A DNA stretch of 64,000 nt from Candidatus Saccharimonadales bacterium (lineage in GTDB: Bacteria > Patescibacteriota > Saccharimonadia > Saccharimonadales > UBA10212). The notes under the pieces are model-generated. The model was not told the origin of the DNA. It was given only the letters and a program-made list of their open reading frames with translations, and did not search any database. Made by a program: the position numbers and the translations under genes. The stretch is from contig JBBDZU010000002.1 of the NCBI GenBank assembly GCA_040900055.1, forward strand, positions 127,725 to 191,724, given 5' to 3'. Positions 112-61,525 of the stretch are shown in pieces. Numbering within the stretch: position 1 is the first letter of the stretch; every line of letters starts with the position of its first letter.

Positions 112-402
112 ATGGCATCCACACCACTGCAACCTTTGGCTGACTGGGTAGTCGCCGAACAAGAAGAAGCCGCTACCAAAACTGCCTCGGGACTTTATCT
201 ACCGGACAAGGCTGCCGAGAAACCCAAAGTAGCCAAGGTCCTAAAAGTTGGCTCAAAAGTTAAAGAAATTAAAGCCGGCGACCGAATTGTTTATAAAAGC
301 TATAGCACCACTGACGTGAAAATAGCTGACACCGAATATATTTTAGTAAAAGAAGAAGACATTCTGGCAACCGTCCTGCCTGCCGGCAGGCAAGGTAAAT
401 AG
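112..402 (+). CDS. groES: co-chaperonin GroES (10 kDa), with an unusual C-terminal LPAGRQGK tail
   Basis: 96 aa. Mobile-loop region and ...EYILVKEEDILATV match Cpn10. GGAGGAG SD. Immediately upstream of groEL. Confidence 0.95.
   Translation: MASTPLQPLADWVVAEQEEAATKTASGLYLPDKAAEKPKVAKVLKVGSKVKEIKAGDRIVYKSYSTTDVKIADTEYILVKEEDILATVLPAGRQGK
375..394. repeat. GC palindrome family copy 1 (CCTGCCTGCCGGCAGGCAaG)
   Basis: Matches the 20-mer found at 7806, 50662 and 50908 at 19/20 positions. The perfect 16-bp palindrome spans 377-392. Confidence 0.9.
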
Positions 403-415
403 GAGGAATAGATAG

Positions 416-2068
416 ATGGCTAAAAAAGTTTTTTATGATGATGAAGCCCGCAGGCGGGTTCTAGCTGGCGCCCAAATTTTACACGACGCCGTTAAAAGCA
501 CTATGGGCCCCAAAGGTCGAAATGCCGTAATTTCCAAAAGCTACGGCAACCCCACTGTGAGCCATGACGGCGTAACCGTGGCCAAAGGCGTGGAGATTGA
601 AGATGTTTTGACCGATAAAGAAGACACTTTAGGTTATAAAGTTGGCGCCGAGCTGATTAAACAAGCCGCCAGCAAAATGAACGATGTGGCCGGGGATGGT
701 ACGACAACCGTCACCATTCTGACATACCATATTTTAAAAGAAGCCAACAAGTTAATTACAGCAGATCACAGCCCAATGGACCTTCGCAAGGGCCTGGAGA
801 AAGCCTCCGCTGACGTGATTGCCAAACTAGGCACTTTAAGCGAAAATATTGGCTCCAAAAAGGCCCGAGTAGCCGAAGTAGCTACCATATCGGCCGGTGA
901 TGATCAAATCGGCCAACTAATTGCTGATGTTATGGAAAAAGTTGGCAAAGACGGCGTGGTGACTGTCGAAGAAGGGCAGGGCCTGGCCATGGAGAGCGAA
1001 GTTGTGGAGGGCTTTACCATGGACCGCGGCTACGTTAGCCCTTACATGGTGACCGACGCTGCCCGCATGGAAGCCGTTTACGAAAAGCCAGCCATTTTAA
1101 TTACCGACCAAAAAATCAGCTCGGTGCAGGAATTCTTGCCTATGCTAGAAAAACTAGCCCAGGCCGGCAAGAAAGATCTGATCATCGTGGCCGAGGATGT
1201 AGAAGGCGAAGCGCTAGGCACGTTGGTACTCAACAAACTTAAAGGCGTCTTTAATACTGTGGCCATCAAGGCTCCGGCTTTTGGCGACCGACGCAAAGAA
1301 ATCCTAGAAGACATTGCCATTTTAACCGGCGGCGATGTAATTACCGAGGACCGCGGCTTTACTTTCGAAAACGCCGAGGTAGCTATGGTTGGTTCGGCCC
1401 GCAAAGTTATTGTGACCAAAGACGAGACAACTATTATCGAAGGTGCAGGCAGCGCTTCGGCAGTCAAGGCCCGCATTGCCCAAATTAACAAACAAATCGA
1501 CCAAGCCAGTTCCGAATACGACAAAGAAAACCTAGAAAAACGCCGAGCAGCTTTATCTGGCAAAGTGGCTGTAATTAAAGTTGGCGGCGCCACCGAAACC
1601 GAAATTGAAGAAAAGAAATTCCGGGTCGATGATGCCGTGGCATCGGTAAAATCAGCCCTAGACGAAGGCGTGGTGCCAGGCGGCGGCATAACCTTAATCG
1701 ATTTGGCGCGAACCATAAAAGCCGAAGGTGCCGATTCGGAAACTGCCGGCGCCGGAATGCTAAAAAAAGCCCTACACGAACCGTTTAAGCAACTGATGGC
1801 CAACGCCGGTCTAAACGCCGATGAAAAACTGGCCAAGGTAACCGAGGATGCTTCCAGCGGCGTTGGCTTCGACGTTAACCAGCCCGACAAACTGGTTACC
1901 ATGAAAGAGAAAGGCATTGTTGACCCTACTCGGGTAGCCCGCGAAGCCATTCAAAATGCTGTTTCGATTGCCGGTACAGCCATGACTATGGGCGCCCTAG
2001 TCACCGACATCCCCGAAAAAGCACCAGCCGCGCCTGCCGCTCCTGCTGGCATGGGCATGGACTACTAA
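416..2068 (+). CDS. groEL: chaperonin GroEL (60 kDa)
   Basis: 550 aa. Contains AGDGTTT, the VVPGGG motif and a C-terminal GMGMDY-type tail. AGGAGG SD. Confidence 0.98.
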   Translation: MAKKVFYDDEARRRVLAGAQILHDAVKSTMGPKGRNAVISKSYGNPTVSHDGVTVAKGVEIEDVLTDKEDTLGYKVGAELIKQAASKMNDVAGDGTTTVTILTYHILKEANKLITADHSPMDLRKGLEKASADVIAKLGTLSENIGSKKARVAEVATISAGDDQIGQLIADVMEKVGKDGVVTVEEGQGLAMESEVVEGFTMDRGYVSPYMVTDAARMEAVYEKPAILITDQKISSVQEFLPMLEKLAQAGKKDLIIVAEDVEGEALGTLVLNKLKGVFNTVAIKAPAFGDRRKEILEDIAILTGGDVITEDRGFTFENAEVAMVGSARKVIVTKDETTIIEGAGSASAVKARIAQINKQIDQASSEYDKENLEKRRAALSGKVAVIKVGGATETEIEEKKFRVDDAVASVKSALDEGVVPGGGITLIDLARTIKAEGADSETAGAGMLKKALHEPFKQLMANAGLNADEKLAKVTEDASSGVGFDVNQPDKLVTMKEKGIVDPTRVAREAIQNAVSIAGTAMTMGALVTDIPEKAPAAPAAPAGMGMDY

Positions 2069-2614: not shown

Positions 2615-3652
2615 GTGTTAGACGACCTTAAATATATTCATCATCGCGACAGCTTGGACGCGTTAGGCGTGGCCGAGCGGCAGTGGCAGCAACTTCTGCT
2701 TGAGTTCGATACTACAAACTACAAACTAAAAACTACAAACATCCAGAATGTGGTTTATGCCGGCATGGGCGGCTCGGCCTTAGCGGCGGAGCTAAGCAAG
2801 ATCTGGCCAGGCTGCAATGTGCCATTTGAAATTTGGCGACAGTATCAGTTGCCGGGGTATGTTTCCAAAAACACTTTGGTTATCTGCGCTAGCTATTCGG
2901 GCAATACCGAGGAGGCTTTATCAGCATTAGCCGAAGCTCAGGAACGGGGAGCCCAAATAGCAATTATTTGCGGCGGTGGCCAGCTGCAAAAAATTGCCGA
3001 GGAACAATCACTGCCGATGCTACTTTTGCCAAAAATCGCCCAGCCGCGCTGGGGAGTTTTAGCCAACTTTAAGGCTTTACTGGCCATATTAGTCGCCGCC
3101 GGGTTGATTGATAAAGAGGCCCAGAATCAGGTCCAGCTAGCCGCTGATTTTTTAAAAAAAGAAGTTGGCGCTTGGTTGCCAACTGTCGCTACCAAAGAAA
3201 ATCCGGCCAAGAGCTTAGCCCACGAGCTAGCCGGTAAATCACCGGTTATTTACAGCGGCCCGCTTCTATTTCCGGCAGCATATAAATGGAAGATTAATTT
3301 CAACGAAAACGCCAAAAACATAGCTTGGTGCGGCCAATTACCAGAGTTTAACCACAACGAATTTATTGGCTGGTCATCTCATCCCATTCAAAAACCCTAC
3401 GAGGTGATTGATCTACGCTCCAGCTTTGAGGACCAGCAGATATCCAAACGCTTAGTTTTAAGCGACCGGTTGCTCTCGGGCAAGCGTCCAGCCGCTCATG
3501 TAGTTGAAGCAAAAGGCGACAGCTTGTTAGAACAGTTAGTTTGGGCGGTGGCTTACGGCGATTTTGTTTCAATTTATTTAGCCTTGCTAAATGGCGTAGA
3601 TCCAGGGCCAGTAGCTTTGGTCGAAAAATTTAAAACCGAGCTGACTAAGTAA
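2615..3652 (+). CDS. bifunctional phosphoglucose/phosphomannose isomerase (SIS domain)
   Basis: 345 aa. GMGGS SIS motif and architecture typical of archaeal/CPR-type PGI/PMI. GTG start. Confidence 0.8.
   Translation: MLDDLKYIHHRDSLDALGVAERQWQQLLLEFDTTNYKLKTTNIQNVVYAGMGGSALAAELSKIWPGCNVPFEIWRQYQLPGYVSKNTLVICASYSGNTEEALSALAEAQERGAQIAIICGGGQLQKIAEEQSLPMLLLPKIAQPRWGVLANFKALLAILVAAGLIDKEAQNQVQLAADFLKKEVGAWLPTVATKENPAKSLAHELAGKSPVIYSGPLLFPAAYKWKINFNENAKNIAWCGQLPEFNHNEFIGWSSHPIQKPYEVIDLRSSFEDQQISKRLVLSDRLLSGKRPAAHVVEAKGDSLLEQLVWAVAYGDFVSIYLALLNGVDPGPVALVEKFKTELTK
2712..2739 (+). repeat. CTAYAAA heptad array inside pgi coding sequence
   Basis: CTACAAA CTACAAA CTAAAAA CTACAAA, translated in frame as TTNYKLKTTN. 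Same motif as 2578-2610. Confidence 0.85.
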
Positions 3653-3683
3653 GGATTATCATCTGTTAAAATAGCTTCTTGTT

Positions 3684-3775
<92 letters not shown>

Positions 3776-3898
3776 GACATTAACGCTTATGTTAAAATTA
3801 AAGTAGCCGGTGCAGTAAGATTTCTTACCGCTAAGCTTGTTTGCACTGCGGTAAAATTCCATCCGGTGGATCTGTTAAATACAAAAAAAGGAGCACCA

Positions 3899-7467: not shown

Positions 7468-7902
7468 ATGGCTAAAGTTCAGCTGTCTGACGAGGAACTG
7501 AAAAAGAAACTTACGCCTGAACAATACCGCATTCTTCGGCAAAAAGGCACGGAAGCGCCTTTCTCCGGTAAGTACCTAGACCACAAAGAAAAGGGCATGT
7601 ATACCTGCGCAGCCTGTGGCGTCCGACTTTTTAGCAGTGACACCAAATTTGACTCCGGTACCGGCTGGCCAAGCTTTTATGACGTTACGTCAAGTGACGC
7701 CGTTAAATTAGCAGAAGATAGCAGCCATGGTATGAACCGCGTAGAAGTTACCTGCGCCAACTGCGGCAGTCACTTAGGGCATGTTTTTAACGATGGACTT
7801 ACGACCCTGCCTGCCGGCAGGCAGGCTACCGGCCAGAGATTTTGCATTAACTCGGCTTGCCTCGGTTTTATGCCAGAAGGCAGCTCTAAGGCCAAAGGCT
7901 AG
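7468..7902 (+). CDS. msrB: peptide-methionine (R)-S-oxide reductase MsrB, with in-frame palindrome insertion
   Basis: 144 aa. Two CxxC pairs and GHVFNDG...RFCINS. An extra [10 protein letters not shown] sits where homologs have about 3 residues. Confidence 0.93.
7806..7825. repeat. GC palindrome family copy 2 (CCTGCCTGCCGGCAGGCAGG)
   Basis: Perfect 20-bp palindrome inside msrB. Confidence 0.95.
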
Positions 7903-50086: not shown

Positions 50087-50587
50087 ATGAAATACCGGCT
50101 TAACAAACAAAAAGAACCAAGAGTCCCCAAAAACTTGGGCGGTTTTACAATTATCGAGGTTGTTATTGTGCTGGCTATCGCTGGTCTAATTATGGCCATA
50201 GTTTTTATAGCCGTACCTCAACTTAACCGCAACGCTCGAGATAATGCCCGGCAAAACGTTGCCAATCGTTTGCACTCAGAACTTGGGACCTACGCTGCCA
50301 ATAATAGCGGAACCTATCCATTTACCACTTCGGCGCTAGCTGATTTCTCTAGCCGCTATGCCTCGACCATTAAGATGACTAATCCATCAACTGGCAGTAC
50401 GTACTCGCTAGACTTCGCTAGCAGTGATGGAGCAAATCCCAGTGCCGATCAAATCCTTATTCATCGCGGCGCTAGGTGTACCGGCGAACAAGCCTCTGGC
50501 ACCAGCTCCTCAGCCACTACCAGATCTTATGCGCTGCGGGTAGCGCTGGATAGATCAAACATTTTCTACTGCATCGACAACGGATAG
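50087..50587 (+). CDS. pilA: type IV major pilin
   Basis: 166 aa. Leader ...KNLGG|FTIIEVVIVLAIAGL with G at -1, F at +1 and E at +5. Confidence 0.85.
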   Translation: MKYRLNKQKEPRVPKNLGGFTIIEVVIVLAIAGLIMAIVFIAVPQLNRNARDNARQNVANRLHSELGTYAANNSGTYPFTTSALADFSSRYASTIKMTNPSTGSTYSLDFASSDGANPSADQILIHRGARCTGEQASGTSSSATTRSYALRVALDRSNIFYCIDNG

Positions 50588-50661
50588 ACCTACTTTGGAC
50601 AGCCAAAGTAGCAAAACCGCCGGGCGCGTCGCCAAGCTTGAGTAGCGGTTGTTTAAAACAG

Positions 50662-50681
50662 CCTGCCTGCCGGCAGGCAGG
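50662..50681. repeat. GC palindrome family copy 3
   Basis: Perfect CCTGCCTGCCGGCAGGCAGG. Confidence 0.95.
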
Positions 50682-50906
50682 GCTCGCTGTGGATCTCACC
50701 CTCACCATTTTCACTGGAAATGGTGAGGGGCTCAAACAGTCCTCGCGACCAAGTACGCCTCTTTAATAAACAACAGACTACTCAGGTTAACTCCTTATGC
50801 CCGGACCCATAAATTGGGCATGTAGGCGAGCCTGAGCTAAGCACGTCAAAAGCATCAACTTAATAATGCCGAGGACTGTCCGATCCGCCAGCTGGCGGAG
50901 AGGGCC

Positions 50907-50928
50907 GCCTGCCTGCCGGCAGGCAGGC
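50907..50928. repeat. GC palindrome family copy 4 (22 bp)
   Basis: GCCTGCCTGCCGGCAGGCAGGC. A CCGCCAGCTGGCGG palindrome lies adjacent at 50885-50898. Confidence 0.95.
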
Positions 50929-51066
50929 TTGTCGTCCCGCAGGCTTGTTTGTGCGCTTTGACAGGGGTTGGCGTCAGCCGAGCCTACGCCCAGAGCTTTT
51001 TTTGCTACTTTTGTCGGCACAAAAGTAGCGAATACTTTGCTTCTTTAGAAAGAAGCAGTTAGCATT

Positions 51067-51876
51067 ATGGTAATGCTTGTTACGGCTATTGCCTTAGCTA
51101 TTTTAGGCTTATGCTTGGGGAGCTTTGTAAACGCCCTGGTTTGGCGCATACATGTCAATAAAAATTGGGTGAAGGCTAGAAGCCAGTGCCCAACCTGCGG
51201 CCATATTCTATCGGCACGCGATCTAATTCCGGTTATATCTTGGTTATCATTACGCGGTCGTTGCCGTTACTGCGGCAATAAAATCTCTTGGCAGTATCCT
51301 ATTTCCGAACTTGGCCTATCAGCTGTTTTTATGACTTCTTATTATTTTTGGCCTGGCGGGTTAACTAGCACCGGTCCTAAAATTTTATTCATTAGCTGGC
51401 TTATTTCGGCTGTAGGTCTTTTGGCCTTATTTATTTATGACCTTCGTTGGATGTTGCTGCCCAGTAAAATCCTGGCTGCTACAGCTTTGGTGGCCATAAC
51501 CGGACGGCTGATTTACTTAATCGGCTTTGAACCGTCAAAAACTGAAGGCCTTGCCAATTGGCTACTTAGCATCACAGTAGCCAGTGGTCTATTTGGGTTA
51601 TTTTATATAATTTCACGCGGTCGCTGGATAGGCGACGGGGACATTAGCCTTGGTCTAATTACCGGCACCTTGCTGGCCGATCCATTGCGAAGTTTTTTAA
51701 TGATTTTTTTGGCGTCGCTAATTGGCACTTTAGTGGTGTTGCCGGCCATTATCAGCGGTCGGCGGGCGCTTGGTACTAGGGTGGCCTATGGCCCGTTTTT
51801 GATTTTAGCGGCATTTATTGTCCTTTTGTTTGGCGATCCATTTATCGATTGGTATAAGGCGCTGATTTTAGTTTAG
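51067..51876 (+). CDS. pilD: prepilin peptidase / N-methyltransferase
   Basis: 269 aa. CPTCGH...CRYCG zinc motif. Multi-TM protein with GDGD-type aspartate motifs. Confidence 0.9.
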   Translation: MVMLVTAIALAILGLCLGSFVNALVWRIHVNKNWVKARSQCPTCGHILSARDLIPVISWLSLRGRCRYCGNKISWQYPISELGLSAVFMTSYYFWPGGLTSTGPKILFISWLISAVGLLALFIYDLRWMLLPSKILAATALVAITGRLIYLIGFEPSKTEGLANWLLSITVASGLFGLFYIISRGRWIGDGDISLGLITGTLLADPLRSFLMIFLASLIGTLVVLPAIISGRRALGTRVAYGPFLILAAFIVLLFGDPFIDWYKALILV

Positions 51877-58067: not shown

Positions 58068-58105
58068 CCCGATGGGCGTCCGCCAGCTGGCGGACGCCCA
58101 TCGGG
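58068..58105. repeat. perfect 38-bp palindrome
   Basis: CCCGATGGGCGTCCGCCAGCTGGCGGACGCCCATCGGG. Its core CCGCCAGCTGGCGG also occurs at 50885-50898. Confidence 0.95.
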
Positions 58106-61235: not shown

Positions 61236-61261
61236 AGCTTCGTCCGCCGAAACTTTTCATT

Positions 61262-61525
61262 ATGCGTTATGTCTACGTCTTACACAGCAAGAAAGATAAT
61301 CAATTCTATATTGGTTCTTCTCATAATGTCAGGAAGCGTCTTAAGGAGCATAATGATGGGAGAGTACCGGCGACGCGTGACAGAATCCCGCTAGAAATCA
61401 TCCACTACGAAGCTTTTGCTAATAAATACGATGCTTTCTTTCGCGAGAGATGGTTAGAAACTGGCTGGGGCCGTAGATACTTAAGGAAATCGCTACATAA
61501 TAAAATGAAAAGTTTAGGCGGATAA
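61262..61525 (+). CDS. GIY-YIG nuclease superfamily protein (UPF0213-like)
   Basis: 87 aa. YVYVLHSKKDNQFYIGSSHNVRKRLKEHN motif. Confidence 0.85.
   Translation: MRYVYVLHSKKDNQFYIGSSHNVRKRLKEHNDGRVPATRDRIPLEIIHYEAFANKYDAFFRERWLETGWGRRYLRKSLHNKMKSLGG

Follow-up and report, generated by a model that had tools for sequence, protein, structure and literature searches.

The DNA analyzed here (the window) is a 64-kb stretch of a metagenome-assembled genome (MAG) of Candidatus Saccharimonadales that opens with the genes groES (Cpn10; positions 112 to 402, forward strand) and groEL (416 to 2068, forward strand). The 3′ end of groES carries a copy of CCTGCCTGCCGGCAGGCAGG, a perfect 20-nt palindrome of the structure (CCTG)2CC/GG(CAGG)2, referred to below as the 20-mer. 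A search of the window confirmed the three exact copies reported in an earlier note on this DNA (7806 to 7825, 50662 to 50681, and 50908 to 50927), in addition to the groES near-copy CCTGCCTGCCGGCAGGCAAG (375 to 394), which contains one mismatch. Beyond these four copies, the 64 kb contained no further match with three or fewer mismatches. The chance expectation was 0.01 matches (100 shuffles) and none of the 100 shuffles reached four matches, in agreement with the opinion of the earlier note that the copies are related rather than coincidental. As developed below, the tail of GroES is likely to be a by-product of a selfish, non-coding, and very small mobile element, the 20-mer, tied to GIY-YIG units that would home into tRNA genes. 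L and P numbers designate loci and proteins, respectively.

Comparison with a syntenic relative (L122) and with 120 GroES C termini identified a 21-nt in-frame insertion at the 3′ end of groES (375 to 395, no strand assigned). The gene ends with ACG GTT AAA TAG GAGGAG in L122 and with ACC GT[C CTG CCT GCC GGC AGG CAA GG]T AAA TAG GAGGAA in the window, the inserted 21 nt being the perfect 20-mer in which CAGG has gained an A to become CAAGG. The open reading frame (ORF) therefore ends with EDILATV, LPAGRQ, and GK (full C terminus, EDILATVLPAGRQGK), and the inserted residues, LPAGRQG (residues 89 to 95), are located between V and the original terminal K, outside the Pfam domain (residues 6 to 88). 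Among the 120 closest GroES proteins, only that of the window carries this tail, which is missing from all 119 relatives; 103 of the 120 end with AT(V/L)K, including 81 with exactly EDILATVK. The proposal that the tail is built from a dispersed repeat was thus borne out, whereas the assumption that GroES homologs end right after the V residue proved wrong for this clade, and the tail is not an eight-codon extension, as previously thought, or a read-through, but a seven-codon in-frame insertion upstream of the original K codon. The reported identity of 19/20 holds for positions 375 to 394, although a frame-preserving +1 insertion is an equally valid reading of the same difference. The same extra A was present in a decayed copy of the 20-mer within the rmlB gene of L021, and a 21-nt variant of the palindrome recurred three times in one viral contig. 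In L122 (45 to 1688), groEL was called as two ORFs of 164 and 377 amino acids, probably owing to a frameshift in that assembly.

The palindrome is separated by 21 nt from the ATG of groEL, close to the 20 nt previously estimated, and by 6 nt from the AGGAGG Shine-Dalgarno sequence of that gene, which overlaps the groES stop codon. The predicted RNA hairpin is stable (−13.9 kcal/mol for a perfect copy and −10.4 kcal/mol for the groES copy), and several other loci place the element 4 to 70 nt upstream of a start codon. These features would fit a selected cis-regulatory element, acting as an mRNA stabilizer, an RNase III or other processing site, or a modulator of translational coupling between the two genes, with the other copies playing similar roles. 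The fold of the groES-groEL junction is however not unusual (z = −1.3), and none of the 119 closest related groES genes has the hairpin. The sequence located 3′ of the hairpin, GTAAATAGGAGG, is not a U-tract, and no intrinsic (Rho-independent) terminator-like site was detected in positions 1 to 600. A cis-regulatory site would not be expected verbatim in at least eight phyla with unrelated flanks, nor in the loop of MsrB, in the genes for GatB and RmlB, in FtsK-like and ScpB-like ORFs, in dead tRNA remnants, in random stretches of intergenic DNA, and within itself, all of which host the 20-mer. We consequently regard regulation as a very unlikely reason for the presence of the element, and the role in groES-groEL coupling or mRNA processing suggested in the earlier note is unsupported. 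As judged from the sequence, the hairpin may have an incidental effect on the groESL mRNA.

The exact 20-mer was found at no fewer than 120 genome loci, versus about 0.5 expected by chance in 596 Gb (a rough estimate), and in 35 viral-contig stretches of IMG/VR, including one 29.5-kb contig with six copies. Repetition of the 20-mer beyond the window, which the earlier note had anticipated, is thereby established. The genome scan covered one genome per species, taxon labels were those of the records, and the group tallies are approximate counts made from record titles. Among the matches listed, Patescibacteria accounted for ~45 loci, Bacteroidota and Ignavibacteria for ~40, loci labeled Gammaproteobacteria for 13, Omnitrophota for 11, Planctomycetota, the Planctomycetes-Verrucomicrobia-Chlamydiae (PVC) group, and Verrucomicrobia for ~10, “Delta,” Bdellovibrionales, and Thermodesulfobacteriota for ~7, Thermodesulfovibrionales for 3, and Chloroflexi and Elusimicrobia for 1 each. 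The identical 20-mer was present in at least eight phyla among these matches, and no cyanobacterium was named in any of the 120 locus titles. Most loci contained a single copy. All-against-all comparison of 250-nt flanks, in search of a conserved flank or a master copy, only recovered tRNAs, overlaps, and repeats within contigs.

Since the 20-mer resembles a simple repeat and many of the loci belong to MAGs, copies might in principle have arisen by local mutation (CCTG slippage combined with quasi-palindrome correction) or as assembly or library artifacts. Seven of the loci listed came from cultured Bacteroidota isolates (Winogradskyella echinorum, Flagellimonas yonaguniensis, Longitalea luteola, Flavivirga sp., Aquiflexum lacus, Agriterribacter humi, and Aestuariivivens sediminis) and several loci from long-read assemblies of unrelated projects, indicating that the 20-mer is not an artifact. 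Local mutation does not account for an excess over chance of at least ~200-fold for an exact 20-mer, for exact insertion boundaries, for copies that are frame-compensated in conserved genes, or for the recurrence of both one-mismatch and 21-nt variants. This explanation is effectively refuted.

Five loci provided built-in empty sites, in which a tRNA fragment carrying the element lies beside an intact copy of the same tRNA. The gap was exactly 20 nt in each of the five comparisons, with no target duplication and no loss of target bases. The 20-mer thus inserts as a discrete, exact 20-nt unit. Target-site duplication was also looked for at 127 sites, and 7-nt direct repeats were found at only 4 of them, all inside heptamer arrays. 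Miniature inverted-repeat transposable elements, which have terminal inverted repeats, target duplications, and a size of ~50 to 500 bp, were rejected as a class on the basis of the 20-nt gap and of the lack of duplication at the five empty sites. The 20-mer was preceded by A in 41% of the cases but by T in only 9%, a base bias that was not accompanied by any motif in the flanks. Copies were nested in L018 and L042, where an intact 20-mer separates CCTGCCTGCCG from GCAGGCAGG, and in L021, where a new 20-mer lies inside a decayed one. A minority of copies (for example in L101, L050, L058, L123, and L146) lay in a heptamer context, 7 of 167 sites having at least 18/21 self-matches at lag 7, versus 0.8 in controls; the excess was specific to lag 7. 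Secondary copies within loci were perfect or had one or two mismatches, few being older, which corresponds to a young age profile; in L143, copies were found within larger local repeats. Recent movement is something that we infer only from this sequence perfection and from the independent hits.

Several side observations concern the sequence around the copies. Tandem heptamer repeats were seen beside many of them (L050, positions 3330 to 3800; L101; L058; L123; L146; L144; L131). In L050, the heptamer array and the 20-mer are 7 nt upstream of an ORF for a four-helix bundle similar to PF05635 (23S rRNA intervening sequence [IVS], S23p), and the IVS of Coxiella has (GACAGAT)3 at the corresponding place (PMC4990558). 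In L131, a 14-nt direct repeat flanks the element on both sides. The same one-mismatch, non-palindromic variant, CCTGCCTACCGGCAGGCAGG, occurred three times in two MAGs (L086, positions 4005 and 5137; L087, position 1062), a recurrence that suggests that whole units are copied rather than single arms. Finally, a 21-nt unit that resembles one half of the palindrome, CAGGCCATGCCTACCGGCAGG, is present in L156 (3911 to 4142) as eleven perfect tandem copies that extend up to the contig end; this array represents a minisatellite or else an end effect of the assembly.

Within tRNA genes, the 20-mer was inserted in D-, anticodon-, variable-, and T-loops, and the tRNA duplications began at, or within 3 nt of, position +1 of the mature tRNA. 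Two viral contigs that are 76% identical over 530 nt (L124, position 8616; L147, position 2284) have a perfect 20-mer at the same point in the variable loop of a tRNA-Met-like gene. The tRNA of L147 is otherwise complete, so that its hairpin would resemble a long variable arm. In L015 (4000 to 4225), another tRNA-like sequence seems to be divided by an intervening tRNA-Met gene into a 5′ part, which has a 20-mer in the D-loop, and a 3′ part. Insertion into the loops of structured RNAs and duplications starting near the mature +1 position are compatible with an RNA intermediate, as proposed for the small dispersed repeats (SDRs) of cyanobacteria, whose nesting and heptamer-repeat context are mirrored here; a hairpin RNA would be joined into the loops of structured RNAs and copied back to DNA. 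No reverse transcriptase recurs in the ~1.3 Mb of loci, however, and homing of GIY-YIG genes at the DNA level would explain the tRNA duplications equally well. A perfect palindrome also holds no strand information, and copies are found in regions of both transcriptional orientations and in intergenic DNA. On balance, we consider transposition through RNA unlikely.

Copies in coding sequences obeyed a simple rule, their net length being a multiple of three (20 + 1 nt in groES and 20 − 2 nt in the msrB gene of the window). The perfect 20-mer at 7806 to 7825 (no strand assigned) lies in msrB (ORF 7468 to 7902), is read in the same LPAGRQ frame as in groES, and adds a net 18 nt in the loop immediately 5′ of the catalytic RFCINS motif. 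The closest MsrB homologs have NDAPDQPTGM at this site, where the window protein has 6 additional amino acids (18 nt); relative to human MsrB3, it is 7 residues longer directly before the catalytic RYCINS motif. An AlphaFold model of moderate confidence (mean predicted local distance difference test score [pLDDT] of 65) leaves the inserted residues, 110 to 122, unstructured (pLDDT < 50). The idea of an intron was rejected, since deletion of the 20 nt disrupts the msrB reading frame, and the 20-mer is therefore not spliced out there. In 221 kb of metagenome DNA selected by MsrB, one copy of the 20-mer was found. Among 80 MsrB loci collected irrespective of the repeat, L167 had this loop interrupted by a perfect 20-mer at a different junction (GPVDRR-LPAGRQ-GK), and decayed versions were present in L159 (MPDGRPA) and in protein P0008 (LPDGRQA), indicating that this tolerant loop was hit more than once; the P0008 copy and that of the window may be of shared or of independent origin.

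The copies in GatB and RmlB similarly add ~7 residues in comparison to solved homologs, and that in another MsrB also adds ~7 residues. In loci with a GC content of 52% or less, 88 of 108 copies (about four fifths) were intergenic, no long ORF spanning them, 10 were in the last 25 codons of a long ORF, and 10 were internal, six of these in the LPAGRQ frame. The coding sites are protein ends or a loop modeled as disordered, and the frame used is mostly the Cys-free LPAGRQ. In a separate observation, a GIY-YIG domain is present in frame between the halves of an ORF of L060 (2751 to 4892), which was judged from its motifs to be type I restriction S-subunit-like; the 20-mer precedes the domain and is read as PACRQAG.

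The 8-kb loci chosen for their 20-mer, ~1.3 Mb in total, revealed a single recurring gene family, encoding a small GIY-YIG nuclease. Seven of the 11 GIY-YIG ORFs were within 150 nt of a copy of the 20-mer. PF05635-like four-helix-bundle ORFs occurred in six loci, in one of which the ORF was adjacent to the 20-mer. In L037, L106, L118, and L154, the arrangement was the same: the 5′ part of a tRNA containing the 20-mer (in the D-loop or anticodon-loop boundary), the GIY-YIG ORF, and an intact tRNA. To control for selection bias, GIY-YIG families were picked by protein search without regard to the 20-mer, and their loci were retrieved by exact protein look-up; eight families were obtained in this way, and one additional locus came from the scan of viral contigs. 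The remnant-ORF-tRNA layout was present in eight of these nine families (ORFs of ~80 amino acids), at tRNAs for Asn, Lys (twice), Gln, Arg, Thr, Leu, and one other. All eight had a GC hairpin in the D-arm of the remnant, which was the perfect 20-mer in two families (L299 and L303) and a variant within 2 to 4 edits in four (L300, L304, L307, and L293). The edit distances to the 20-mer in these six families were 0, 0, 2, 3, 3, and 4, versus a median of 9 for control 150-nt windows. Together, the loci chosen by the 20-mer and those chosen by protein identified six with a copy of the 20-mer in a GIY-YIG unit beside a tRNA gene (L037, L106, L118, L154, L299, and L303). The hairpin, or a close variant of it, is a constant part of this widespread layout of tRNA remnant, GIY-YIG gene, and intact tRNA. 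The GIY-YIG proteins of the loci with a perfect 20-mer are ~42 to 58% identical to the L106 query, indicating that the hairpin is more conserved than the adjoining gene.

SLX1 is a structure-specific endonuclease. The GIY-YIG proteins matched the UPF0213 structures 1ywl and 1zg2, with a weak match to SLX1. A survey published in 2006 places prokaryotic proteins of this kind in the SLX1 cluster and mentions the fusion of one such protein to a tRNA D-loop methyltransferase (PMC1564403). The window itself encodes a UPF0213/Slx1-like GIY-YIG nuclease of 87 amino acids (61259 to 61522, forward strand), the sole candidate trans-acting factor seen in it.

Three additional observations concern GIY-YIG loci. 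The contigs of L295 to L298 encode an identical protein, P0242, at a tRNA-Asn, but the tRNA remnant 5′ of the gene contains the hairpin ACCCGCCGAAGGCGGGT either once or twice in tandem; the copy number of this sister hairpin is thus polymorphic at the level of strains. The tRNA-Val locus of L039 (860 to 1300) has a decayed GIY-YIG ORF and another palindrome, of 34 nt, at the D-loop position of the 5′ remnant, the 20-mer being within a larger insert in the T-loop of the downstream 3′ tRNA remnant. In L093 (4758 to 5042), a small GIY-YIG ORF is located in the 23S rRNA gene of a Saccharibacteria MAG; the protein family is the same and the target is rRNA.

The mobile-element reading leads to the following scenario. 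Conserved tRNA genes would be the homing targets of GIY-YIG units, and the hairpin would form the left edge of what is copied. Cleavage in the D-loop would result in copying of the DNA present between the homology arms, that is, the hairpin, the rest of the remnant, the ORF, and a 5′ tRNA part. The conservation of the tRNA targets would afford an unusually wide host range, bringing an identical hairpin to distant phyla and viral contigs. The ORF would be eliminated, and a solo hairpin left in the tRNA, by recombination between the short repeats of tRNA sequence. Other solo copies, as in groES, msrB, and spacers, would be placed in trans by a structure-specific nuclease at ectopic breaks or single-stranded sites. 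Speculatively, the candidate nuclease might recognize an extruded hairpin or cruciform, and the self-complementary 20-mer might pair with itself to form a blunt duplex suited to insertion at breaks. In coding DNA, survivors would be limited to tolerated sites and to net lengths that are multiples of three. The groES copy would have landed one codon before the stop codon, one extra A keeping the frame, and would persist since a floppy seven-residue tail is harmless, no function at the junction being required. In its most specific form, this scenario makes the 20-mer the cis-acting hairpin of an undescribed, cross-phylum selfish class, in which an ~80-amino-acid Slx1-like GIY-YIG enzyme homes into tRNA D-loops and mobilizes the bare hairpin in trans; we put this forward tentatively, as a possibility that may well prove wrong.

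Several observations weigh against this interpretation. The four copies of the window are all at least 10 kb from its GIY-YIG gene, none of them is in a tRNA, and that gene is itself outside any tRNA arrangement. Two of the eight families with the layout have other hairpins (L295 to L298 and L301), and the GIY-YIG locus L074 has no hairpin. It is therefore conceivable that the hairpin does not belong to the element and is instead a passenger that dead tRNA remnants often carry. The excess of targeting to hairpin loops is weak (22/125 versus 9 to 17/125), and we make no claim on this point. No strain-level presence/absence polymorphism of the 20-mer was found in collections that contain no close relative of the MAG. 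Finally, the nuclease is a candidate for the mobilizing enzyme, and the copying of an exact 20-nt unit is hypothetical.

The two remaining copies of the window lie in a 480-bp spacer (50587 to 51067) between a pilin-like gene and a prepilin peptidase gene. The perfect 20-mer at 50662 to 50681 is followed 246 bp downstream by that at 50908 to 50927 (no strand assigned to either), which directly follows a different GC palindrome, TCCGCCAGCTGGCGGA (50884 to 50899, no strand assigned). The spacer is a stack of hairpins, which also includes a 15-bp hairpin (50699 to 50729) and similar CTACTTT...AAAGTAG hairpins at both ends (50590 to 50611 and 51001 to 51032), and may represent a mobile insert, either composite or decayed. 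A search of Rfam gave no credible match in 50400 to 51200 and only two tRNAs in the whole window, so that the repeats belong to no family found there. TCCGCCAGCTGGCGGA is also the center of a 38-nt perfect palindrome located between convergent ORFs (58068 to 58105, no strand assigned). It accompanies the 20-mer at loci from other phyla, its 12-nt core being found 10 times in 8 sources and shared with 20-mer loci that include L011 and L016. In viral contigs, TCCGCCAGCTGGCGGA was present in 55 stretches, a few-fold above a rough chance estimate for a 16-mer; its status consequently depends on the co-occurrence.

A literature search of incomplete coverage returned no match for the exact 20-mer, its 14-nt core, or the three encoded peptides, and no relevant palindromic mobile elements in Patescibacteria, Bacteroidota, or Omnitrophota. 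The same search found no GIY-YIG homing endonucleases associated with palindromes at tRNA genes of the Candidate Phyla Radiation and no account of GIY-YIG homing with tRNA remnants and hairpins. What is new is the range of phyla in which the sequence occurs verbatim, the exactness of insertion documented by the empty sites, the repeated insertions in a loop, and the reproducible link to a specific small nuclease family. The 20-mer looks like one of the smallest known mobile DNA elements. To our knowledge, very small mobile repeats, known since 2008, were limited to one cyanobacterial family and had no mechanism. The mobilization of elements that have no room for a gene becomes a testable question, for which proteins and strains can be named and the substrate is defined. 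If the hairpin is mobilized by the nuclease, it would be the smallest nuclease-mobilized transposable unit known, would account mechanistically for very small mobile repeats as a whole (SDRs, heptamer-repeat arrays, and GC hairpins), and would be a natural, recurrent source of loop insertions of 6 to 7 residues in conserved proteins. In practical terms, the 20-mer adds LPAGRQ, PACRQAG, or CLPAGR peptides to annotated proteins, creates tRNA pseudogenes, probably breaks assemblies at tRNA genes, and is a possible marker of horizontal exchange among Patescibacteria, their neighbors, and their viruses.

Repetitive extragenic palindromes (REPs) are species-specific, have an imperfect palindrome preceded by a conserved 5′ tetranucleotide, and typically form inverted pairs. 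They are the classical hairpin repeats of bacteria (PMC3116915). The 20-mer shares with REPs and their paired forms (REPINs) a small size, a high GC content, a mostly intergenic location, and the lack of target duplication. It might accordingly owe its movement to a REP-associated tyrosine transposase (RAYT; an HUH Y1 enzyme related to those of IS200/IS605) that uses single-stranded hairpins as substrates, in which case the link to GIY-YIG genes would be incidental. The assignment was rejected, as the 20-mer is a perfect palindrome with no tetranucleotide or other conserved sequence in its flanks, is mostly solitary, is identical across phyla, and is also present in coding regions. No RAYT or other transposase-like family recurs in the 8-kb loci, in which GIY-YIG genes alone do; of the source genome, 64 kb was covered. 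Mobilization by a RAYT is in our opinion decidedly unlikely.

Phage T4 SegB is a GIY-YIG homing enzyme that recognizes a conserved tRNA (T-psi-C) motif and spreads with neighboring tRNA genes (PMC2330249). It offers a precedent for the homing proposed here, the likeness lying in the presence of a GIY-YIG nuclease gene among tRNA genes. Unlike segB, the genes described here encode ~80-amino-acid UPF0213/Slx1-like proteins with no separate DNA-binding domain, are chromosomal, occur in many phyla, and are flanked by a 5′ tRNA remnant with a conserved hairpin. We know of no such hairpin or solo derivative described for Seg genes. In fungal mitochondria, mobile GC clusters, PstI palindromes, and double-hairpin elements are short GC-rich palindromes of AT-richer genomes that coexist with homing endonucleases. 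These elements resemble the 20-mer in that they insert in intergenic DNA and occasionally in frame in genes, but they are organellar, have a size of ~30 to 50 bp or more, are lineage-specific, and often generate short target duplications.

Rickettsia palindromic elements (RPEs) are selfish DNA inserted in frame in unrelated housekeeping genes, at positions compatible with protein folding (PMC10969869). The 20-mer is likewise in frame at tolerated sites, as in the C terminus of GroES, the MsrB loop, GatB, and RmlB. RPEs however have a size of ~100 to 150 bp, encode a conserved peptide, and are found only in Rickettsia, whereas the 20-mer has 20 nt and occurs in other phyla; since this length is not a multiple of three, its coding copies need a +1 or −2 adjustment.

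Together with RPEs, the closest known counterparts are the SDRs, which Elhai is said to have described in 2008 (Genome Res 18:1484) and which are reportedly dispersed, hairpin-forming repeats of ~20 to 27 nt, nested in one another and found in tandem heptamer repeats. The 20-mer, compared with SDRs by description, agrees with them in being of about the same size, non-coding, dispersed, nested, and partly located in heptamer repeats. SDRs are too small to encode anything, and we know of no enzyme that mobilizes them. According to three publications, they are restricted to one cyanobacterial family, the Nostocaceae (PMC3116915, PMC5861425, PMC2884548). The 20-mer differs in that it is a perfect palindrome present in at least eight phyla and in viral contigs, inserted in frame within conserved proteins, and physically tied to units composed of a GIY-YIG gene and a tRNA.

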